From the NCBI GenBank assembly GCA_938083505.1, contig CALKCF010000002.1, forward strand, positions 128,001-192,000: a stretch of DNA of 64,000 nt, read 5' to 3'. The translations under genes were made by a program, and so were the position numbers. This DNA comes from an uncultured archaeon (GTDB lineage: Archaea > Thermoproteota > Nitrososphaeria_A > Caldarchaeales > Wolframiiraptoraceae). This document shows, piece by piece, positions 2,927 through 20,871 of this stretch. Under the pieces are notes generated by a model. It did not search any database. It was not told the DNA's origin and saw only the letters and a program-made list of their open reading frames with translations. Position 1 is the first letter of the stretch; every line of letters starts with the position of its first letter.

Positions 2927-4855
2927 GTGATTATAGATAGCAAAAAGAAAATGTTAAAAGGTTCTTTGCTTAGTAACGAAAAAGGTAAACGTGTCATACT
3001 TTCTGGGAACGAAGCTATAGTTAGGGGTGCCATAGAGGCTGGTGTCAGATTTGCGACGTCTTATCCTGGAAATCCATGCACAGAGATACTCGACACCTTA
3101 CTATTAGTGTCCAAAGAGCTCGGCATATATGCTGAGTGGTCTATTAATGAGATGGTAGCTTTGGAGGCAGCCTCTGCTGCATCAATTGCCGGCCTTAGGT
3201 CTTTTGTAGCGATGAAACACGTTGGGTTGAACTGGGCCCTTGACCCCCTGATGTGTATAAATCTCAGCGGTATCGAGGCGGGCATGCTCGTTGTTGTCGG
3301 TGACGATCCGCAGAGTAGAGCTTCACAAAACGAAGAAGACATAAGATTTTTAGCATCGATGAGTGAGCTTCCCATGCTGGAGCCCTCAGGTCCGGCAGAA
3401 GCAAAAGACATGTTCGTATGGGGTATCGAAGTTTCAGAACGCATTAAGCTTCCAGTGCTTTTACGCTCTGCACAAAGAGTTTCACATGGTCTAGAGGACG
3501 TCGTTTTAGGAGAAATAATTCAGCCCAACGTTAAAGTCGAATTTAAAAAAAATGAGAAGTACATAGTTGCAGGTGCTGGTGGAAGGTCGGTAAGACTCCA
3601 TGAAGGTTTACATAAAAAGCAGGAATTGATTGAATCTATCATTGAACGATCACCATTTAATAAAGTAATAAAGCATGGTAGAGAAAAATGGGGAATTATC
3701 TCTGCTGGAATAGGTTACGGTATTGCGGTTGAGGCTTTGAAATATTACAACATGGAAGATAAATTTGCGACGTTTAAGCTGGCTGCACCCCATCCACTAC
3801 CAAAGAAACTCCTCAGAGATTTCTGCAGTGATCTTGAGGCGGTTATTGTAGTAGAAGATGTAGAACCGTACTTACAGCATAATATAAGGGCTGTCTTGGC
3901 CGAAGAGGGAATAAATTGTAAAGTGTATGGACGCGGTAGCTTTAATCCAAAACTTGTAGGTGAGGTTACATTTAATGAGGTAGTAAGCTTAATTGAGAAG
4001 GTAGGTGGAGAAAAACTATTTTCTCCAGCATCGAGTAGGAGTCATGTTGCTAGATTTAGGCAAATGCTGATTTCCAGACCACTTACCATGTGTAGCGGTT
4101 GCCCCCATAGAGCCACTTTCTATGCGATGAGGAAAGTTGTGAACAAAATGCTCAAAGATAAAGCGATCTTCTGCGGCGACATAGGCTGCTATAGCTTTGC
4201 GTCACAACCTCCATTCCAATTAATAGATCTAAAATTATCAATGGGCGCAAGTATGGGTTTAGCCTGTGGTTTTGCAAAGTCAAAGGTTGATAGTAAGGTG
4301 TTTGCAATAATTGGTGACTCTACATTCTTCCATGCAGGCATACCCGGTTTGGTAAACGCAGTGTACAACGACGCTAGGTTTGTCGCAGTTATACTGGATA
4401 ACCTTGTGGTAGGCATGACTGGCCAGCAACCATCGCCCAGCATGGGCGTAAGCGCAAACGGCGCAAATACTACGTCCATACTGCCGGAGAATATTGCACA
4501 GGCTATCGGTGTAAAGTTCGTAAAAACTTTCAATCCCTTAGACTTGAAAGAGGCTGAAAGAGCTTTTGAAGAGGCGATTAACTACCAGGGGCCCGGGCCT
4601 GCCATGCTCGTCTCGCGCGCCCCATGTGCAGTATATGTAACTAGGAAAGCTAGGACGAGGGGTGAACGACTACTCAAATACACAATCCTAGAGGATAAGT
4701 GTACCGGTTGTGGTATATGTACACAACAATTTGGATGTCCTGCCATTATAATAGGCGAAAACAATAAGGCTAAGATAGATGGTGATGATTGTACGGGCTG
4801 TGGAGTTTGTGCCCAGATTTGTCCATATCGGGCGATCGTTAAGGAGGGGTCCTGA
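2927..4855 (+). CDS. iorA: Indolepyruvate:ferredoxin oxidoreductase alpha subunit
   Basis: GNEAIVRGA, MKHVGLN, CSGCPHR, GDIGCY, GDSTFFHAG, C-terminal 2x[4Fe-4S]. Confidence 0.93.
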   Translation: MIIDSKKKMLKGSLLSNEKGKRVILSGNEAIVRGAIEAGVRFATSYPGNPCTEILDTLLLVSKELGIYAEWSINEMVALEAASAASIAGLRSFVAMKHVGLNWALDPLMCINLSGIEAGMLVVVGDDPQSRASQNEEDIRFLASMSELPMLEPSGPAEAKDMFVWGIEVSERIKLPVLLRSAQRVSHGLEDVVLGEIIQPNVKVEFKKNEKYIVAGAGGRSVRLHEGLHKKQELIESIIERSPFNKVIKHGREKWGIISAGIGYGIAVEALKYYNMEDKFATFKLAAPHPLPKKLLRDFCSDLEAVIVVEDVEPYLQHNIRAVLAEEGINCKVYGRGSFNPKLVGEVTFNEVVSLIEKVGGEKLFSPASSRSHVARFRQMLISRPLTMCSGCPHRATFYAMRKVVNKMLKDKAIFCGDIGCYSFASQPPFQLIDLKLSMGASMGLACGFAKSKVDSKVFAIIGDSTFFHAGIPGLVNAVYNDARFVAVILDNLVVGMTGQQPSPSMGVSANGANTTSILPENIAQAIGVKFVKTFNPLDLKEAERAFEEAINYQGPGPAMLVSRAPCAVYVTRKARTRGERLLKYTILEDKCTGCGICTQQFGCPAIIIGENNKAKIDGDDCTGCGVCAQICPYRAIVKEGS

Positions 4856-10077: not shown

Positions 10078-10338
10078 TTAGAATATTCCGAGCTTAACCG
10101 CAAGCTCAGATGCACTATACTCCGGTTTCAGCTTTACGAATGCCTTCTTTTCACCGAGCGGTGTTATCAGCGTGTTAACCGTTTCTACCTTAACTTCATA
10201 AAGCTTCTCTACAGCATCCTTTATTTGCTTCTTTGTGGCTTTTATGTCGACTATGAAGGTTATTTTGTTCTCTTTTTCTACGAGTGAGACAGTATCCTGG
10301 GTTATGACAACCCTTTTTATCACCTTTTGTGGGTCCAT
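10078..10338 (-). CDS. rpl23p: 50S ribosomal protein L23
   Basis: [26 protein letters not shown]; ATG at 10338 preferred. Confidence 0.95.
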
Positions 10339-10421
10339 GGTAAAAAGCATGATAAAGCCGCTCTATTTTTAGTTTTTTGAAAAAATAAAAAAAGAAGGGA
10401 ATATTTGTGGGCATCGGTAGG

Positions 10422-11037
10422 TTATCCTAGGTTCATTAACGGATCTATCGAAGGTGGGAGGATACGCTCGACAGTCAGCATCGCACCGACTGCGGGCTTT
10501 ATCTCTATGATGAACTTATTGTTCGTTCCAATCCTAACGTCCTCTAGACCGCCATAAAGTGCGTCTAGCTTGAATAGTTATTTGCCACGTTTCACCATAC
10601 TCTAGCAAAACGTCACGATCGCCCCTTACTTCACTGACTAACAAGTTGGTGCCATTGACTAACCGTGCAAGATGAATATGTGGGTCCCATATAACTTACT
10701 GTGAGTGTTTTGTCGCTCATCTCTATAGGTTCTTTTCCAGGACCGGTTTTATGTAATATTGTTAGTTATATATTAGATACGTACCGACTGTTGCCCGATT
10801 CTTAGGATCTTGCTATGACTCCGCCGCTCAACTCTATCGCAGATGTAACCTCGCTAAGACCTGCCCTTATGACTTCTGAACTCTTCTGGATCGTTGTAAA
10901 GCCGAGGTTCAGCACAGCAAATGCAAAGGCAGCGGCAACAACTACAAAGGCTATCAGTATAATGGCAGTCTCCGAGCCCGTTAAACCCCTGTTTCGCACA
11001 CGGTTTTTTTGTATTGAAATATTTTCACGTTCATCAT
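10422..11037 (-). pseudogene. flaB: Archaellin (ArlB/FlaB) pseudogene
   Basis: Class III signal [22 protein letters not shown]; premature TAA at 10802-10804; shifted fragments KTGPGKEPIEMS, GDRDVLLEYGETW, FIIEIKPAVGAMLTVERILPPSIDPLMNLG*. Confidence 0.9.
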
Positions 11038-11419
11038 TATTAATAATACAAAAATCAGACTTGAGGTGAACAGGTTAATGACACAAAAAACAAAAGCCCC
11101 GGATTCGGGGAAGTTTTAGAGTGGCGTGCTTTACTTTATATAAGCAGAATACTAGCAAAGCTGTTCGGTAACCTGACATGTAACACAATATTCTTCAAAC
11201 TTGGGGTTGCTGAAGGGTGCAGAATCACCGATTTACTCTTACAAAAACTCAACTTGCCTACCACTGAAGACGGATTAGACCTCCACATGGTTTTCAAAGA
11301 GTTATCAAAATTTCTAATTGAGAACAATTATGTTGAAAGATTTTGATTTTTTGAGTCCGAGGTCCTAGGCGGTAACTTTAAGGAATACCATGTACGTGTT
11401 AGTAACAACACCGTCTTAT

Positions 11420-11960
11420 CTACACTTGAAAAAGAATCAAGACACTAGAGGAGGAAGTCCAAAAAACGAAGGAACCTCTAGAAAATACTTTGATGGATGT
11501 TAGAGGTTTGATAAATGAGTTAGAAAATCCGTTTGAGTACGTCACAAAACTCATTAGCACGTTTCCCATAAAGGAGTTAAAGTCTGCTAATGAGATTAAT
11601 AAAACTGTCTCAAGTTGAACGCACCATAGAAGGGACAACACAGTCATACATGCCAGCTGGACGTTGTTCTTTAGGTTAGGTTTAACAAAATTTCTTAACG
11701 TTTTAGCACTTACAAGTCTAATGGTGAAACTCATAGGATATGATCGACTGTTAAGCATGCTCAGCTCTACGTTGTGGAGGTCATTAATACCATCTGATAC
11801 GATAGTTCAAATAATAGAATTTCTGGAGATTATCAAGAAGTTCGAGAATAAAGTACAAAACCCGAATTCTTAAAAACACTAACAATTGAGGATTGTTTGA
11901 TATCCATATATCTTCTAAACAAGTTAGTGGGAGGGGGCACTGATCTACTTTTCATTCTTT
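11420..11960 (+). pseudogene. Degraded archaellum accessory gene (ArlC/D/E-like)
   Basis: Fragments RIKTLEEEVQKTKEPLENTLMDVRGLINELENPF and LMVKLIGYDRLLSML, separated by stops; lies just before flaG. Confidence 0.5.
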
Positions 11961-12022
11961 TGCTACTTATCATTAACAGACTTCAATCCGATAACACATT
12001 GAATAGAAAGTGGTGATGCGGC

Positions 12023-12517
12023 GTAGTTTCGACATCGTTCATCAGCGAGGCGATAATAATGATTGCCGCGATCGTAGCCACTTCTGTGTTTGCAACCACA
12101 TTCATATCTGGCATATATACGGTATCCGATGCAAATAAATTTGCGATTAGCCGTGTGGAGCATGAACTTAAGACCGAAGTTAAAATTATCTTTGCCACCC
12201 CAGTTAGCGACAAGGTAATTAAAGTTTAGTTAAAGAATGTCGACCAATCTGCCATATCTTCAGAACTAATAGGATTATCAGACATATTCTTCGGCCCCAA
12301 AGTATCTTTTCAGCACATACCTTACGGAGGTGCGAATCTGCCAAGATGATATTATGAAATCATAAATGACGCTGATGACGATGGTAAATGGGACCCTACT
12401 GAAACAATTGAGGTAACGATAGGGTGGCCATCCAATCTGCAAAGCGAAGATTACTTCCTTAGGTTCGCTACCTACACAGGTCAGTACGCGGACTTCATGT
12501 TCTCTATAGTGAGGTGA
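12023..12517 (+). pseudogene. flaG: Archaellum stator ArlG/FlaG pseudogene
   Basis: One frame: SFISEAIIMIAAIVAT...KV*LKNV...SDIFFGP...PR*YYEII...GKWDPTETIEV; TAG 12227 and TGA 12347 where Trp is expected; no valid start after GGTGA. Confidence 0.85.
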
Positions 12518-12522
12518 TCATA

Positions 12523-13083
12523 TTGGGCAGTTTTGGTATGTTAATTACGGCATGCATTTTGATGATAATCATTTTGCTGATTTTTGGTCAGTGGACATAT
12601 ATGATACAAACTAGAGATTAAAATATACAACGAGGGGTTGGAAGTCTTAGACACAGAATATCATTAGAAAGGACGGACATAAGAATATTTGATATAACAC
12701 CTCAAAGCAATACGACAATTTATGTTAAAGTTAAGAATATAGGTTCATATTCTATACCTGTTACTCAATTTGACAGAATGGAAATTTTTGTCATTGGTAC
12801 ATTAGTGAACCACGCATCCCTGACTATCATAAGAGTGCCGTTTGATCGGCTGTCAATTGGAGAAGAAGAATGGCGGGTGATGGTAGTCTCAACTAATGGT
12901 GTTATGGGTGAGGTGCTGAATCCAATAGAGCCAACCCATGCTTCAAGCGGCAGATGGGACCCATTAGAAGAGTTGGTTATCATAATCACTCTAAGTGATA
13001 AACATACGCTCAATTTGACGTAGCCAGTTAGCATAATACTTGTAGCACCAAACGGCGCATCTATAGCAGAGGTAGGAGTTTAA
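12523..13083 (+). pseudogene. flaF: Archaellum stator ArlF/FlaF pseudogene
   Basis: TTG after GAGGTGA, N-terminal TM, VKNIGS, LNP...GRWDPLEE, VAPNG; early stop/frameshift and TAG at 13021. Confidence 0.8.
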
Positions 13084-13085
13084 AG

Positions 13086-13815
13086 TTGAGTAAGAAGTTT
13101 GTAAAAAGTGCATCCAAAAAAGAATTCACATCGTCCAACATAGAGCTGGATAGAAGAATGGGACTAATAAAGGTACCATCCATTATCCTCATAAGAAGGG
13201 CCTAATGATTCCGGCAAGAGCGTATTATCCCAGCAGTATGTTTACGGAGCTTTACAAAGCGGATTTAGAGTTTACCACGTCGCAACAGAAAGTGGTTATA
13301 GACAATTGATTAAAAATATGGAAAATCTCTTGTTTGACGTTAAGTATTATTTCCTTAACGGTGACTTGAAAGTAGCTGAGCTTCATGTAAAAGAGCTAGA
13401 ATGGAAAAGAGATTTGGCGAAAAATTTTTGGATTTTGATTATAAACCTTATTAAAAATAATCTAACGTTCGACGTCTTTGTTATAGATTCACTTACCTAC
13501 ATAGCCACATATGCATCAGAAGAGGACATACTAAGCTTTTTCACAGACGTGAGGAATCTGATTGAGGAAGAAAACAGGACTCTTATAATAACAGTCCATA
13601 CGCATGCATTCACCCAAGAAATGATGTTAAGGATCCGCTCTATTTGTGATGTACATTTTTTGCTTTCAATAAAAGAAATAGGTGACAGAATGGTTAGAAT
13701 ATTGCAAACACCAAAAATTAAGGGTGCAATAAAATTTACATCAGTTATCCTGAGCTTTGATGTGGATACAGCCTTCGGTATTAAGGTGTTACCGTTCTCC
13801 CAAGCGAGGGCATGA
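13086..13815 (+). pseudogene. flaH: Archaellum RecA-like ATPase ArlH/FlaH with +1 frameshift before Walker A
   Basis: ELDRRMG..IILI / extra A at 13194 / EGPNDSGKSVLSQQ; VIDSLT; RIRSICD; FDVDTAFGIKVLPFSQA. Confidence 0.9.
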
Positions 13816-13821
13816 ATATTG

Positions 13822-14325
13822 ATGGTCCATGAGCAGAAAGAAAAACAACTGAACAAAAGTCTCGCAGAAGCCGTTAAAGTAAACCCTCATCTAGCGAAAT
13901 ACTTAGCAAGTCTGCGTAACAAAGGGCTCGATCAGCCGGCGTATTACGTGTAACTTTCAAGAGATATGAGATACTTAGAGAACGTAAACATTACTTATCC
14001 AGTTGGAGACTCGATATTCATTCATGTTTACGAGCGAGCTAAAGGTGATAGATTATATTACCAAGTAATCGAGCCGACTGTGCCGAAAGAACTTAGTGGA
14101 TTGTTGAAAGAGATCGATAAAGCCCTAGCGGCATTAATAGGCAATGAGGAAGTTTGGGACAGTGAGTCTGAAAAAGAAAGGATCCTGTTATCAAAGATTA
14201 AATCCCTAGTGGTTATAGATTAAAGTCTTCCAACATGGAACTACAAGGTCTTGAAAAAATCTGGCATTCCAGTCAAGATAAGGATGAGTGAGGAAACCTT
14301 ATCAGCCCTAAAATACCAGCTGATT
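13822..14325 (+). pseudogene. flaI: 5' fragment of archaellum ATPase ArlI/FlaI (ATPase domain deleted)
   Basis: NPHLAKYL, NITYPVGDSIFIHV, YQVIEP; TAA at 13951 and 14221; no Walker A follows. Confidence 0.85.
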
Positions 14326-15494
14326 CTTCACGCGGAGTTTGATAGGTATATGGATAGGCTCAAAAGGTTTTCCGAGACCTATTCTGCACTTTTGACTTCC
14401 TTTGCATTTTTATCTGTTTCAATGTTATTAACCTCAATGATATACGGCGGTGTAAGACCTGAACAAATTCTAATAACTTCTGCTGTCATGATGTTAGTAA
14501 CACTAGCCTGCATCATTTTCTTACTATACAGAAATTCGATAAAATTTCCAGCTCTACACTCTTTAAAAGAGAGACCGAACAATATGGCAAGAATCGAGAA
14601 ATTAATACTACCTACACTTATCGGGAGTATTTTAATAACAACCATAATCGGCGTAGTTCCGGTTTATTTCGCTTTACCTGATCCCATATCTTTACTATAT
14701 TCCTGTTCCTCTTCCTTTCTTTGTTGGATCTATTGCTCCCATTTTCGTTGGACTATTAGGTAAAAGAGCAGTGTCTCGAGTAAAAGAAATGGATGTGACT
14801 TTCTTATCCTTCATTAAAGCTCTTGCAGATTCATTATCAGTAACTAGTTCCCTAAAGCTAGCACTAAAGCCAGTATTACTGAACGATTATGGCAAGCTTA
14901 CAGAACTCATAAAGAAAATGATGAATAGGCTTAAGGCCGGATTTGATGCTGGCGTATGTTTATACCTTTTTGGTGTTGAAAGTGGCAGCAAGATCATCGC
15001 TTCATGCTCTTCTGTATTAGGCGAGTGTATAAAGTCCGGCGCTAAGGCGAGCGTCTATGGTAAGGTATTGGGCGATTATATAAACTCTGTCCTAATAAGA
15101 AGAAACAAGCGCGCCCAAGTCGCTGGTAACCTAAAGTGGATCATTATACCCCTACAGGCAACATTGAGCAGCGTTCTAGCACTCATTAAAGCCCTAACTT
15201 GAATCTTTAGGAAACTTATGCAAATGGTCTCTCACCATACGTTTCTATAATACAGGTTCCACTTGAACTTACGGTAAACATATACTTCTTCTCAGTAATA
15301 CTTGCCGTTACTATCAGTAGTAGCCTCACAATATACTTCGTTGAGGGAGAGTCGCGCTTTACGCTACTTACGTACATTGGTCTGCTTATGATAATCTCAG
15401 CAGCATCGTTCTTGATGGTATAGTTCTCCGTCGGGTCACTTTTCCGTACGATGTTTAATATAGAAGAGTTGAGCAATCTTGTAAGATGGGTTAG
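14326..15494 (+). pseudogene. flaJ: 3' portion of archaellum platform ArlJ/FlaJ, frameshifted
   Basis: YMDRLKRFSETYSALL, D..FLSFIKAL, DYGKL, FGVESGS, RRNKRAQVAGNL..IIIPLQ; stops at 14761, 15200, 15421. Confidence 0.85.
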
Positions 15495-16089
15495 ATGCAG
15501 GATTTATCTGATATCGAGTTGATGTTTGCACTTTTTGTTTTTTAGTAATATTTTACATTACATTATGTGTAGTCTTATTATATGTAAAGATCAGGACACC
15601 TAAGGCATTGTCCAACACCCCAAGACACGTTCTGGCAGGATATACATCCAGCCAAGCCGAGCATGTCAGATATGACGAATCTCATTACCATAATACTCTT
15701 AAAAATGAGGGCAGGGCCATAGTGCAGACAATACAAACATCGTATCAGCAAAAGCTGTTTTAAACTCTGAGCCTTCTTTACAGTCACAGCAACCTCAATT
15801 AACTAAGAGCGAAAGTGTCATTAACCTTAACGAAGGTTCAGATGAAGTTGAAAAGTTCATGGAATTAATAGAAAGTTCGGTGAAGAATTTACAAATAAGT
15901 AAAGGAGTCAGAGGTGCGTCAGACGAAGGTGTAGACGTCACAAGCCAAGATCAGGTTAAAATCTTATTAGATAATTATGGTAGATCAGATCACCAAGGCA
16001 TCTCCGAAGACTTTGTTAAGAACCTAAAATATCTAAAAGATGCGATCGATGAACTTAAGAGACGCACAACCAATGACACTATTTCTTAA
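15495..16089 (+). pseudogene. Degraded membrane-anchored helical protein at end of archaellum cluster (ArlX-like candidate)
   Basis: ATG 15495, TM segment split by frameshift in T-run (MFALFVF / LVIFYITLCVVLLYVK); helical C-terminal ORF 15859-16089. Confidence 0.35.
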
Positions 16090-16132
16090 ACATAATAATT
16101 TAAATAGAAGAGCATTAAATTAATTTATTGAA

Positions 16133-17506
16133 ATGGTAACACTAACCACATCAGGCTCTGTTTTGAGTTACACCCCAAGTTTTGAACTTTTAAATAGGTG
16201 GGTAATCGAAAAGCAAATTTGTTGTTATTGTGGCACATGTGCAGGTGTATGCCCCAGGATAGTATTGAATGGAAAAGTTCCAAGACTCATAGATTACTGT
16301 TCCGAGTGTGGAAATTGTTATAAATACTGTCCCCAGACCTACACACCTGTTAATGAATTTGAGAGAAAAATATTCCCTGGCACAAATAAGGAAGAATATT
16401 TAGGATACTACGAAAAATGCATATTTGCACAAAGTACCGATAAAAGCATACTTTCCGTAGCGCAAAACGGAGGTTTAGTGAGTGCATTATTAATTCATGC
16501 ATTGGAGACCGGGCTAATAGATGGCGCCATTCTGACAATAACTGACAAAAATTGGATGCCTAAGCCCATGCTTGCTAGAACCCCTGAAGAAATAAAGAGG
16601 GCGGCTGGCTCAAAATATGTTATGTCCCCAAATATGTTGATTTATCGCGAAGTAATTAATGATCCGACGATTAAAAAGGTCGCTGTCGTAGGACTTCCAT
16701 GCCAAATTAGGGCTGCAAGGAAGTTACAAATGGAGCCTATAATCCCTGTTGAGAATGGAAAGATCGAGTTTATAATCGGATTATTCTGCCACAGGAATTT
16801 TTCCTATGAGGGTCTATTGGAGACGGTTAAAAAGATTCTAAACATCGATCTCTACGAGGTAAAGAAGTTCGATATACGGAAGGGAAAGTTCACGATCCTC
16901 ACCCAGGAGGGTAAACAAGTAGAGTTACCTGTAAAAGAGCTCAGCAAACATTCTTGGTCGTCGTGCGCTTCCTGTACTGACTTCACGGGAAGGTTGGCGG
17001 ATATATCTGTCGGCAATGTTGGCATCATAGACGTCGATTGGAGCTTGGCTATAGTCAGGTCTAAGAAAGCCATGGAGCTCCTAGATAGTGCAGTGAAAGC
17101 TGGAAAGCTGAGAATAGCCGAGGGTAAAGATGCTATAGAAGTAATATTAAAAGAGGCACAAAAGAAGGCAGAGAGGCGGGAAAAGGTTAGTGAGCTACTG
17201 TACCAATACTTCTCTGAGCTTGGCATACCTTCAGACGAGGTGCGTGCATACTTTACTCTGCTGACACTAGGAGGTGCCAGTTCTGAAGAGCTCTCAAAAG
17301 CACTCAACATTGGTGGGGCAGAATTAGATGCAATTCTTGCGAGGCTCTGTGAAAAAGGATGGACAGTTAAGCATGAAGACCGTTATATACCTACTAGACC
17401 GTCTCTCGTTCTACGAATTGAAGTGACAAAGTTCCACAATTTAATCAAGAAGGTTTTAGAGAAAGAGTCTGAGTTGGAGGGCATATACGCAAGGAAGTTT
17501 GGCTAG
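16133..17506 (+). CDS. FrhB/FdhB-family (F420 hydrogenase beta-like) protein with N-terminal 2x[4Fe-4S] and C-terminal TrmB-like winged HTH
   Basis: CCYCGTCAGVCP/CSECGNCYKYCP; AQNGG, AAGSKY, VGLPCQ, IGLFC, CASCTDF..LADISVG; tail LGIPSDEVRAYFTLL..GGASSEELSKAL..LARLCEKGW. Confidence 0.85.
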   Translation: MVTLTTSGSVLSYTPSFELLNRWVIEKQICCYCGTCAGVCPRIVLNGKVPRLIDYCSECGNCYKYCPQTYTPVNEFERKIFPGTNKEEYLGYYEKCIFAQSTDKSILSVAQNGGLVSALLIHALETGLIDGAILTITDKNWMPKPMLARTPEEIKRAAGSKYVMSPNMLIYREVINDPTIKKVAVVGLPCQIRAARKLQMEPIIPVENGKIEFIIGLFCHRNFSYEGLLETVKKILNIDLYEVKKFDIRKGKFTILTQEGKQVELPVKELSKHSWSSCASCTDFTGRLADISVGNVGIIDVDWSLAIVRSKKAMELLDSAVKAGKLRIAEGKDAIEVILKEAQKKAERREKVSELLYQYFSELGIPSDEVRAYFTLLTLGGASSEELSKALNIGGAELDAILARLCEKGWTVKHEDRYIPTRPSLVLRIEVTKFHNLIKKVLEKESELEGIYARKFG

Positions 17507-17684: not shown

Positions 17685-17791
17685 TGGCGCCCTTCGGCGG
17701 GTGGGGTTTTCAACCCTCCCATGGCCGGGATTTGAACCCGGGTCCGGCGGGCGACAGCCGCCGATACTAGACCGGACTATACTACCAGGGC
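17685..17791 (-). tRNA. tRNA-Asp(GTC) with 29-nt BHB intron (17693-17721) at 68/69 in the 3' acceptor strand; CCA encoded
   Basis: GCCCTGG...CT GTC GC...CCGGG TTCAAAT CCCGG CCA|intron|GGGCG CCA; removal restores 7-bp acceptor stem. Confidence 0.9.
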
Positions 17792-17895: not shown

Positions 17896-18432
17896 ATGGA
17901 GCCAAGGGAGCTTTTAGGTATAATAAAGGGAAGGAGATCTGTGAGAAGGTTCTTGGAGAAGAGGATTCCTGACGAGTGTCTGAAGCTCATAATGGAGGCG
18001 GGCATATGGGCTCCAAGCGGGAGCAACATACAGCCATGGCAGTTCATTCTCGTAAGAGACCCCATATTGATAAAGAAGATAAAGCTCATATCTCCAGGCC
18101 TATTTGGTAACCCTGATGCACTGATCGTAGCGTGTGTGGACAAGAATAGGTACGAGAAGGCTGGTAAGATAGGCTACACGCTGTCGCTCATGGACATATC
18201 CATGGCAACCCAGAACATGATGCTAATGGCGTACAGCCTCGGCATAGGGTCATGTCCGATAGCATCTTTCAACAAGCTAGCCGTGAGTGAAATTCTCGAG
18301 CTCCCGGATAGCTTTGAACCTGTCTTGATGATCAGTTTAGGGTATCCTGAAGAGTGGCCTCGTCCTCCAGAAAGGAGGCCTCTTAGTGAGGTGGTTTATG
18401 TAGATGGTTATGGAAAGCATTATAGAGGATGA
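17896..18432 (+). CDS. Nitroreductase family protein
   Basis: RRSVRRF, APSGSNIQPW, QNMMLMAYSLGIGSC. Confidence 0.92.
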   Translation: MEPRELLGIIKGRRSVRRFLEKRIPDECLKLIMEAGIWAPSGSNIQPWQFILVRDPILIKKIKLISPGLFGNPDALIVACVDKNRYEKAGKIGYTLSLMDISMATQNMMLMAYSLGIGSCPIASFNKLAVSEILELPDSFEPVLMISLGYPEEWPRPPERRPLSEVVYVDGYGKHYRG

Positions 18433-18709
18433 GCACTTCAAGCTCCTAACTTTTCTCATAGTTAGTGCAAGAGGTTGTGTTGATGAACCTTCGCTCTATG
18501 GACCGCTCAGGCTAATAGATGCTGCAGAGAGGTTAATAGGCCTGATGGACAAAATGGGAAAAGCTGACAAAAGGTTAATAGAAATAATGGAAACCATACG
18601 TGAAAGAAAGTTCAGCGTCATGAGTAATGAGGCGGAGTTTATCAAGTTGTTGGACGAACTTGTCTTAAGAATTTCAAGAATAATTAAAGAAACACAACTT
18701 ACAAGGTGA
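18410..18709 (+). CDS. Small helical protein (DUF6092-like)
   Basis: VSARGCVDEPSLYGPLRLIDAAERL motif. Confidence 0.7.
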   Translation: MESIIEDEHFKLLTFLIVSARGCVDEPSLYGPLRLIDAAERLIGLMDKMGKADKRLIEIMETIRERKFSVMSNEAEFIKLLDELVLRISRIIKETQLTR

Positions 18710-19023: not shown

Positions 19024-20871
19024 ATGGTGTTGGGTTACAACAAGCTTCTGTATTTAGACTTGAACTCGGGTAAAGTTGAGGAGAAGGATGTTGACGAGGA
19101 GCTGGCATATGGTTTCATAGGTGGCCGTGGATGGGCAGCTTACATTGTGTTTAAGGAGCTTGATAACATAATTGACGGTCTTCATCCTTCTAACGTGCTT
19201 GTTGTTGCAACCGGACCGTTAACCGCCATACCATTTCAAAGTGGTGGAAAGGCAACGTTCGCAAGTATAAGCCCACAGACTGGCATATACGGCGATAGCA
19301 ACGTAGGCGGCTTCTTTGGTTATAGGATGAGGAGGGCTGGAGTAGATGCATTAGTGATTAAAGGCGCATCTCCACACCCCGTCTACTTACTTGTGGCCGA
19401 TGGCAAGGTAGAGATTCATGATGCGGAGAAGCTTTGGGGCCTTAACTCGCAGGAGACCGATGTAAAGTTAGTGAATGAATACGGTGATTGTTCCGTCGCC
19501 TCAATAGGCACAGCTGGCGAGAAGTTGGTGAAGTTCGCTTGTATTAACGTAGACTGGTCGAGGAAAAGAATGCGGCATGCTCAAGCAGGAAGGACAGGGG
19601 TAGGCGCTGTCATGGGTTCGAAGAGGTTGAAGGCGATAGTTGCGATGGGTGACAAAGAGGTTAAGGTTGCAGATGAAGAGAGGTTGAGGGAGGCTGCAAA
19701 GAAGCTTCAGAAAATGGTGATGGAGAGTCCAAATTACGAAGCCTGGAGAAAGTATGGAACACTGGCTACGATCGAATGGTCGAACAAGGCAGAATGTCTG
19801 CCGACGTATAATTTCCAAAAAACGGTTTTTGAGTACGCGGATAATATAGGCGGCGACGCCATGGATAGGGTGAGAGTATCTACGAGGAGTTGCTCCAACT
19901 GCATAATTCCATGCGAGCATGTTGTTCCGTTTAAGTTGAACGGAAAAGGTGAAGTTGGCATCGAATATGAGACGGCAGCAATGTTGGGTTCAAACCTCGG
20001 GCTGAAGAGTATTGAAGAAGTTGCAAAAGCAAACTACCTGTGCGATTATTACGGACTGGACACTATCAGCACAGGCTCGGTGCTTGCATTCGTCATAGAG
20101 TGCTACAAGAGGGGGTTGATCACGGAGAAGGAGTTAGGCCTTGTGCCGGATTGGGGCGATATAAATGCCATATGCAAGATGATAATAATGATCGCAAATA
20201 GGGAGGGCTTTGGTGATGTAATGGCAGAAGGCGTAAAGGCTCTAGCTGAGCGTATAGGCAAGGGCTCGGAAACTTTCGCCATGCACGTGAAGGGTTTAGA
20301 GATCAGTGCTTATGATCACAGAGCCGCGACCGCCATGGCCCTAAGTTACGCAACTTGTGACATAGGTGCGCATCATAACAGGTCTTGGGCGATAACCTAT
20401 GACCTCGAGGTTGGTAGGGACAAGTACACAGAGGACAAGGTCAAGAAAGTCATCTACCTTCAGCACATAAGACCGTTATTTGACATTTTAGGAGTTTGTA
20501 GGTTTTACTGGGTGGAGCTTGGTATCGACCCTAATGTTTATGCGGATGCGTACTCTGCAGTTACCGGAAAGGAATTTACACTAGACGACCTCTTGTTTAG
20601 GTCGGAAAGGGTTTGGAATTTAACTAGGGCCATTGCAGTCATTCGCAAAGGTATAAGCATGAAGGACGACTTATTGCCGGAAAGGGACTTCTCGGATCCC
20701 GTTCCAGAAGGGCGTACGAAGGGTGCAAAGCTGGATAAGGGTAAGTTCATAGAGATGCTGAAGATGTATTACACTCTCAGGGGCTGGGATGAACTCGGCA
20801 GACCGACCTATGAGAAACTCATGAAGATCGGTTTGGAAGAAGTTGCCAAAAAGCTTTACGGAAAATCTTAA
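19024..20871 (+). CDS. Tungsten aldehyde:ferredoxin oxidoreductase family (FOR-like)
   Basis: GRTGVGAVMGSKRLKAI, CSNCIIPC, EYET, DYYGLDTIS, DIGAHH, CRFYWVELG. Confidence 0.92.
   Translation: MVLGYNKLLYLDLNSGKVEEKDVDEELAYGFIGGRGWAAYIVFKELDNIIDGLHPSNVLVVATGPLTAIPFQSGGKATFASISPQTGIYGDSNVGGFFGYRMRRAGVDALVIKGASPHPVYLLVADGKVEIHDAEKLWGLNSQETDVKLVNEYGDCSVASIGTAGEKLVKFACINVDWSRKRMRHAQAGRTGVGAVMGSKRLKAIVAMGDKEVKVADEERLREAAKKLQKMVMESPNYEAWRKYGTLATIEWSNKAECLPTYNFQKTVFEYADNIGGDAMDRVRVSTRSCSNCIIPCEHVVPFKLNGKGEVGIEYETAAMLGSNLGLKSIEEVAKANYLCDYYGLDTISTGSVLAFVIECYKRGLITEKELGLVPDWGDINAICKMIIMIANREGFGDVMAEGVKALAERIGKGSETFAMHVKGLEISAYDHRAATAMALSYATCDIGAHHNRSWAITYDLEVGRDKYTEDKVKKVIYLQHIRPLFDILGVCRFYWVELGIDPNVYADAYSAVTGKEFTLDDLLFRSERVWNLTRAIAVIRKGISMKDDLLPERDFSDPVPEGRTKGAKLDKGKFIEMLKMYYTLRGWDELGRPTYEKLMKIGLEEVAKKLYGKS

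Follow-up and report, generated by a model that had tools for sequence, protein, structure and literature searches.

A complete TrmB-type DNA-binding domain on a stand-alone FrhB-family flavoprotein of a Caldarchaeales archaeon: a candidate pairing device for a ferredoxin:F420-type oxidoreductase

What is the DNA-binding domain of a transcription factor doing at the end of a redox enzyme? FrhB-type modules are the standard adaptor by which enzymes are wired to coenzyme F420, and the gene described here encodes such a module as a stand-alone protein joined, without precedent, to a whole TrmB DNA-binding domain. It lies in a 64,000-nucleotide stretch of DNA (hereafter the window, to which all positions refer) from an uncultured archaeon of the family Wolframiiraptoraceae, order Caldarchaeales, covering positions 128,001 to 192,000 of the forward strand of contig CALKCF010000002.1 in assembly GCA_938083505.1. 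A first reading of the letters of this window (the original prediction) had proposed a one-component regulator that senses the redox state of F420 and ferredoxin. Based on homology searches, structure models and a comparison of conservation between paralogues, we instead favour, with a probability of roughly 0.55, the reading that the protein is a homodimeric ferredoxin:F420-type oxidoreductase in which the TrmB-derived tail would serve as a pairing device.

The open reading frame (ORF) at 16133..17506 on the forward strand encodes 457 amino acids (aa) plus a stop codon and is the whole coding sequence of the FrhB-TrmB fusion protein. Pfam matches were found for FrhB_FdhB_N (PF04422) at aa 98-168 (E 1.5e-23; 83.1 bits against a cut-off of 22), for FrhB_FdhB_C (PF04432) at aa 181-331 (E 4.5e-42; 143.9 bits against a cut-off of 23.3) and for TrmB (PF01978) at aa 362-417, where the 32.1 bits are above the curated gathering threshold of 25.6. 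Upstream of the FrhB domains are two CxxCxxCxxxCP motifs, C30/33/36/40 and C56/59/62/66, with weak Fer4 matches over both. The original prediction had described complete ferredoxin and FrhB motifs followed by a TrmB-like tail from about position 17190 (aa 353), and this description was confirmed, the former by Pfam and the cysteine motifs and the latter by the TrmB match and structure prediction. In an alignment of 11 fused proteins, C30, C33, C36, C40, C59, C62 and C66 were invariant, as were C190, C219, C278 and C281, which align with cysteines of the solved structure 8RIU_B and are the putative ligands of the FrhB [4Fe-4S] cluster by homology; the FrhB motifs were likewise invariant across the fused clade. 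In the C56 column of the second ferredoxin motif, the Asgard fused proteins P0011-P0013 have Asp (DPECxxCxxxCP), and the cluster there could be Asp-ligated or of the [3Fe-4S] type.

The C-terminal 120 residues are, as judged from sequence profiles and models, a complete TrmB DNA-binding domain consisting of a winged helix and C-terminal helices. AlphaFold2, run on the full-length protein with a 50-row alignment, gave a predicted local distance difference test score (pLDDT) of 89.9 and a predicted template modelling score (pTM) of 0.84, with a linker helix at 334-362, helices at 367-379, 384-391 and 395-408, a hairpin at 411-414/417-420 and further helices at 423-443 and 445-456; the tail modelled alone had a pLDDT of 90.1. 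With the tail model as query, Foldseek returned TrmBL2 (5bpd) at a TM-score of 0.67 and a root-mean-square deviation of 2.7 A over 106 columns, as well as MarR proteins. In the PDB, a profile built from 12 fusion tails retrieved TrmBL2 (E 6e-6) and P. furiosus TrmB (E 6e-5), over an alignment spanning the winged helix and the helix after it, which in TrmB forms the coiled coil, and the tails of the orthologues gave TrmB Pfam matches at 21.9-47 bits. Model, profile and Pfam matches therefore agree with the expectation of a TrmB helix-turn-helix at the C-terminus. A search of the tail alone against 1.84 billion representative proteins yielded only 12 matches at E <= 0.001, namely one more fusion protein and a fragment of such a protein, a few small TrmB proteins, and two longer ones (P0114, with ankyrin repeats, and P0123) in which the similarity was limited to a short stretch of the tail. 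In sequence terms the tail is a divergent TrmB subfamily with no informative stand-alone twin.

The protein was predicted to form a homodimer, and largely through this tail. With an 11-row alignment of fused proteins the dimer score was 0.66, and the best of three controls scored 0.00. In the calibration, which applies only roughly to an alignment of our own, 20 of 30 proteins solved as pairs of one chain attained the mark, as did 1 of 23 solved as single chains; TrmB dimers are moreover among the solved structures, and some of the score may stem from this resemblance. At least 91% of contacts agreed among three runs, with a partner pLDDT of at least 86. The predicted interface was almost entirely made of the tail (residues 350-364, 377-381 and 419-457), joined by residues 13, 22-23 and 68-70 of the ferredoxin domain, and the modelled contacts of helix 423-443 were spaced in a heptad-like manner, like those of the TrmB coiled coil.

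The surface through which a TrmB protein reads DNA told a different story. In the TrmB family, Tyr50 of the recognition helix and, to a lesser degree, Asp51 are important or essential for DNA recognition, and both are conserved in TrmB, TrmBL1, TrmBL2 and MalR, with the exception of MreA, which has Ser at the Tyr position (PMC4158304). HMMER alignments placed R48-V-Y50-D51 of TrmB over E395-L-D397-A398 of the fusion protein, such that Tyr50 corresponds to Asp397 and Arg48 to Glu395. At the Tyr50 position, all 8 of the 8 fusion sequences of the genus clade had D, G or E, as opposed to Y in 8 of 9 canonical TrmBs. For comparison within the same six genomes, their canonical TrmB paralogue (265 aa; 83.6 bits for its TrmB domain) was taken as an internal control, with conservation expressed as mean pairwise identity per segment within the genus. 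The recognition helix of the paralogue (IPYSKIYEVLGSLEEKGW) was 100% identical in these genomes, whereas the DNA-facing N-terminal half of the recognition helix in the fusion protein was 58% identical and the least conserved segment of the tail; the corresponding values were 65% for the wing, 78% for the whole fusion protein and 93% for the terminal helix, the best-conserved segment of the tail, in which L448 and I451 were invariant across phyla. The predicted interface coincides with this best-conserved segment and would account for the terminal helix being the most strongly constrained. The N-terminal half of the recognition helix carried, on average, a net charge of -2.0 in the genus clade, compared with -0.4 in canonical TrmBs. 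The best explanation of these patterns is that the former DNA-reading face of the genus protein has been released from the constraint that an operator-binding regulator would be expected to show.

The architecture itself is, on comparative evidence, real, old and conserved. Each of the six other genomes of the genus has it (with the gene split by contig ends in one), and it was not found in other genera of the same family; in other families of the order the homologues are unfused, 351-399 aa long and 34-36% identical. A tail-profile search among longer proteins identified 33 FrhB+TrmB clusters, approximately 25 of which were from Asgard archaea (Promethearchaeota, Hodarchaeales) with lengths of 478-484 aa, so that the fusion is kept both in relatives of the host and well beyond them. 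In a quick maximum-likelihood tree based on the FrhB core alone, with tails removed, 31 of 31 fused proteins fell into one clade (SH-aLRT 89), within which the genus group (100) was sister to the Asgard group (100). A single fusion with subsequent transfer between the two phyla is the most parsimonious history, and horizontal transfer is probable because the fusion is common to Asgard archaea and a single hot-spring genus of Caldarchaeales. The unfused homologues of the same order, which have a different position on the tree, were rejected as ancestors; they also stand alone, without conserved partner genes. The literature search found no description of an FrhB-TrmB fusion, in line with the earlier statement that no characterised protein of this architecture was known, and a survey of archaeal fusion proteins (PMC11237513) does not mention it. 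Other FrhB-family proteins (P0029, P0046, P0036, P0111) have CBS pairs, a methyltransferase or a polysaccharide pyruvyl transferase as C- or N-terminal additions, and fusion to other domains is evidently common for the FrhB module.

For the enzymatic half, the closest PDB match was 8RIU_B (E 6e-64, aligned over aa 22-335), followed by FrhB itself, 6QII_B (E 1.5e-56). The former is the zeta F420-reductase subunit of the CODH/ACDS of Ca. Ethanoperedens, in which a ferredoxin domain (residues 1-83) anchors the subunit to its partner, an F420-reductase domain follows (84-349), and a C-terminal extension (350-370) forms a homodimer interface (PMC11493965). Among NCBIfam models, the first 350 residues were nearest to FrhB and FpoF, all below equivalog cut-offs: FrhB TIGR03289 scored 236.8 bits against 331.5, and the FpoF/FqoF models NF040616 and NF006808 scored 136.8 and 141.1 bits against 475 and 444, which rules out an FpoF orthologue. 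The fusion gene was the sole FrhB-family gene in the host genome (1.15 Mb, 10 contigs, 98.5% complete), where no FrhA or FrhG was found (FrhA at 136-147 bits, cut-off 392.5) and the neighbours of the fusion gene are unrelated to these subunits. The two [NiFe] hydrogenases of the genome are Vhu/Mvh-like and sulfhydrogenase-like, and the idea that the protein supplies a missing FrhB subunit to either was rejected since both are of non-Frh types. A CODH or Fwd partner gene was likewise absent beside the fusion gene in the window and at orthologous loci, the genome as a whole not having been searched for CODH/Fwd.

Whether the host could use F420 was addressed through its cofactor genes, as the original prediction had advised. 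CofD (349.9 bits; C6:134337-135245), CofE (284.2 bits; C7:113157-113897) and Fno (254.2 bits; C4:10666-11310) were present, all above cut-off, and the genome has three luciferase-like oxidoreductase genes. Neither of the Fo synthase genes, CofG or CofH, was found in this 98.5%-complete genome, which suggests that the Fo headgroup would have to be scavenged; if so, F420 use by the organism is plausible from its gene content. CofE was detected in 35 of 41 related genomes of the order and FrhB in 16 of 41, such that a tight phyletic link between FrhB and F420 biosynthesis was discarded; CofE was not found in the six genomes of one sister genus.

In the favoured reading, the protein would be a homodimeric iron-sulfur flavoprotein of FrhB/FpoF type working as a ferredoxin:F420 oxidoreductase, with substrates and direction inferred from its relatives. 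Reduced ferredoxin, made by the AOR/POR-type enzymes of the fermenter, would deliver electrons to the N-terminal 2x[4Fe-4S] domain, from which they would pass to the FrhB [4Fe-4S] cluster, to flavin adenine dinucleotide (FAD) and, as hydride, onto F420; the reverse reaction would also be possible, and together with Fno the enzyme could link ferredoxin to NADPH. The tail, derived from an old gene fusion, would act in this genus mainly as a dimerisation module by way of the helix that follows the wing and of the last helix. Ferredoxin:F420 oxidoreductase activity is reported for soluble FpoF in a source that cites work on Methanosarcina mazei (PMC9012536).

Several findings weigh against this reading, and most of them speak for the next best one, that of a one-component redox sensor or trigger enzyme in which the FrhB, iron-sulfur and FAD parts read the redox state of ferredoxin or F420, the linker helix shifts the geometry of the dimeric TrmB domain, and promoter DNA is bound to regulate redox genes. 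The tail is a full DNA-binding domain with a confidently modelled winged-helix fold, which is far more than a dimerisation helix requires, and it is kept across some 33 protein clusters in two phyla. The predicted dimer is built through TrmB-like helices with the recognition helix and wing tip (aa 392-418) outside the interface, and in the model these elements may be free as they are in DNA-binding TrmB dimers; the predicted contacts of the tail with ferredoxin-domain residues of the other chain would offer a route for coupling redox state to DNA. Loss of the Tyr is in itself not fatal, as MreA is a functional TrmB-family regulator with Ser in its place (PMC4158304). One Asgard subclade (13 clusters, "Asgard_A", with the helix KPEIIYNILKTLKQRKW; members include P0128, P0130-P0133, P0136, P0137, P0139, P0141, P0142 and P0144) keeps a Tyr in 11 of 13, which HMMER places on TrmB Tyr50, and combines it with a basic winged helix (mean charge +4.4) and a well-conserved recognition helix (72-78% identity). 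Because Asgard_A retains these features, the ancestral fusion may well have bound DNA, and by sequence its members are the best candidates in the family for real DNA binding, with the regulator idea being stronger there. Finally, the enzyme is an accessory in this order since many relatives have CofE without an FrhB gene.

For the genus protein, however, the same idea has to contend with a Tyr position that is Asp, Gly or Glu throughout and with a reading half-helix that is acidic and the least conserved segment of the tail, in the very genomes in which the helix of the canonical paralogue is invariant. Similarly, the second Asgard subclade resembles the host genus, with Tyr in 0 of 12 sequences and a half-helix identity of 29%. 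Across the six genomes of the genus, no conserved operator-like palindrome was found around the TATA box of the fusion gene; the sole inverted repeat at the promoter (16086-16103 / 16115-16132) was rejected as an operator, being AT-rich and having a downstream arm that is not conserved in the genus. Neither the nitroreductase nor the AOR gene downstream is a conserved neighbour or co-transcribed, and the cofactor ligands are all retained, such that nothing suggests an enzyme turned pure sensor. What stands of the original prediction is therefore the architecture, the winged-helix fold and the conservation of the fusion; what counts against its redox regulator, in this genus, is the loss of Tyr to Asp397, the acidic and variable half-helix and the lack of a conserved palindrome. 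Control of the nearby nitroreductase and AOR-type (FOR) genes fares worse: a nitroreductase follows in only 4 of the 6 genomes, AOR is absent at orthologous loci and a tRNA-Asp gene intervenes, and these genes were accordingly rejected as regulon targets. On balance we regard the sensor as a possible but unlikely explanation, and we are a little more doubtful still of the broader claim that FrhB-TrmB proteins represent a hitherto unrecognised class of one-component regulators or trigger enzymes in archaea, which would couple ferredoxin/F420 redox state directly to transcription by means of an Fe-S/FAD enzyme domain, with the genus protein binding DNA via a non-canonical surface.

An improbable third explanation is that the winged helix attaches the F420-reductase module to a partner (a ferredoxin-dependent oxidoreductase, the Mvh-like hydrogenase or a complex-I-like enzyme are candidates) and wires it to F420 as zeta and FwdI do for CODH and Fwd: the closest solved relatives are indeed plug-in subunits of larger complexes, the winged-helix face is free in the predicted dimer, and HdrA/HdrD-like and FlpD-FrhB genes stand beside a fusion gene in Asgard archaea, but 8RIU anchors via its N-terminal ferredoxin domain and not its C-terminus, no partner gene is conserved beside the fusion in either phylum, and the exposed helix face varies within the genus, which is unexpected for a fixed protein-protein interface.

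The surroundings of the gene are given in Table 1. As the original prediction had noted, the gene stands alone, its neighbours being a small ORF, tRNA-Asp, nitroreductase, DUF6092 and AOR. The bases between the TATA-like element and the ATG were not conserved in the six genomes of the genus, and judging from the archaeal TATA consensus the fusion gene probably has its own promoter and a leaderless or near-leaderless mRNA. The 76-aa upstream ORF is conserved in the genus and 61% identical to a 63-aa ORF at the same place in a relative; it has no similarity to a 104-aa ORF upstream of an Asgard fusion gene and was dropped as a family-wide partner. Downstream, nitroreductase and DUF6092 are probably a translationally coupled pair, and the arrangement of tRNA-Asp, nitroreductase and DUF6092 recurs in 4 of 6 genomes of the genus. 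Further upstream, between rpL23 (10078-10350) and the small ORF at 15859, the window has approximately 5 kb of broken archaellum-like ORFs (10400-15500), among them a KaiC/FlaH-like fragment (13306-13815); in the relatives L001-L004 this interval measures only about 750 bp, the whole region having been lost.

Gene content varies among the Asgard fusion loci: there are two glutamate dehydrogenase genes at one, an Mpt_N protein, HdrD/HdrA-like genes and an FlpD-FrhB gene at a second, and a nitroreductase fragment and hemerythrins at a third. On the Hodarchaeales contig L042, a 623-aa FlpD(MvhD-like)-FrhB fusion (2930-4801, reverse strand) is divergent from the FrhB-TrmB gene, with HdrD-like and 1036-aa HdrA-like genes nearby. 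No fixed partner gene or regulon was indicated by the loci examined in either phylum.

Table 1. Parts of the fusion gene and neighbouring features, in window coordinates.
Feature	Position	Strand	Remarks
Small upstream ORF	15859..16089	+	76 aa, acidic; no Pfam match; ends 43 bp before fusion gene
TATA-box-like element TTTAAATA	16099..16106	+	26 nt before ATG; conserved in six genomes of the genus
Ferredoxin domain	16205..16342	+	about aa 25-70; two CxxCxxCxxxCP motifs; expected 2 x [4Fe-4S]; aligns with 8RIU_B ferredoxin domain
FrhB_N + FrhB_C F420-reductase module	16424..17125	+	aa 98-331; expected FAD and one [4Fe-4S]; Pfam and PDB matches
Long linker helix	17132..17218	+	aa 334-362; DSSP on model; C-terminal part in predicted dimer interface
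TrmB-type winged helix-turn-helix	17219..17398	+	aa 363-422; recognition helix aa 395-408, wing aa 411-420
Two C-terminal helices	17399..17503	+	aa 423-443 and 445-456; TrmB coiled-coil helix plus extra helix; predicted homodimer core
tRNA-Asp	17717..17791	-	convergent on fusion gene; between fusion gene and nitroreductase
Nitroreductase	17896..18432	+	overlaps DUF6092 by 29 bases; pair conserved in relatives L001-L004
DUF6092	18404..18709	+	see nitroreductase
AOR	19024..20871		absent from orthologous loci

The occurrence of the fusion in Caldarchaeales, the control with a paralogue from the same genomes, the tree and the split within the family are new in this analysis. If the tail only pairs the enzyme, this family would be a clear case of a transcription-factor domain reused as a structural part, and a caution against calling such fusions regulators solely because of the domains they contain. 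Should the tail still bind DNA, which is likelier for the Asgard subclade with Tyr, it would be the first transcription factor to sense redox state via an F420-type flavoprotein. In both cases, the gene points to a way in which an organism with a 1.15-Mb genome that lives by tungsten-dependent fermentation could connect its pool of ferredoxin with F420 and, via Fno, with NADPH.

Known systems resemble the fusion protein in one part or another. Trigger enzymes and other enzyme-regulator fusions such as PutA, BirA and NadR, for which DNA binding has been demonstrated and operators are known, also combine an enzyme and a DNA-binding-type domain in one polypeptide, but the sequence of the fusion protein argues against the canonical mode of DNA binding. 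The likeness to TrmB (P. furiosus, 3QPH) and TrmBL2 (5BPD) lies in a winged helix followed by an amphipathic dimerisation helix, through which the fusion protein is also predicted to dimerise. In contrast to these regulators, where the domain is N-terminal, it is C-terminal in the fusion protein, with a wing three residues shorter and an extra terminal helix. TrmB and TrmBL1 carry a sugar/effector domain at their C-terminus, whereas nothing follows the tail of the fusion protein and the FrhB module is N-terminal to it; because TrmBL2 and MreA are also without an effector-binding domain (PMC4158304), this domain is not defining for the TrmB family as a whole.

On the enzymatic side, FrhB, which is the beta subunit of F420-reducing [NiFe] hydrogenase, shares the FrhB_N and FrhB_C domains, the conserved motifs and the cluster cysteines, and the fusion protein has an extra ferredoxin domain. 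HCAR, another member of the FrhB family (PDB match E 2e-17), uses ferredoxin and not F420. FpoF/FqoF, through which electrons enter the F420H2 dehydrogenase (its input subunit), has the same layout over aa 24-350 and the same proposed stand-alone ferredoxin:F420 chemistry, but FpoF has no winged-helix tail. The zeta subunit (8RIU chain B) and FwdI (8RJA chain E) of Ca. Ethanoperedens thermophilum come closest, with a 2x[4Fe-4S] ferredoxin domain, an FrhB-type FAD/[4Fe-4S] domain and a C-terminal homodimer add-on (PMC11493965); in zeta, however, which belongs to CODH as a subunit, the C-terminal extension is only 20 residues long, whereas the protein described here has a 120-residue TrmB domain and is encoded by a stand-alone gene.

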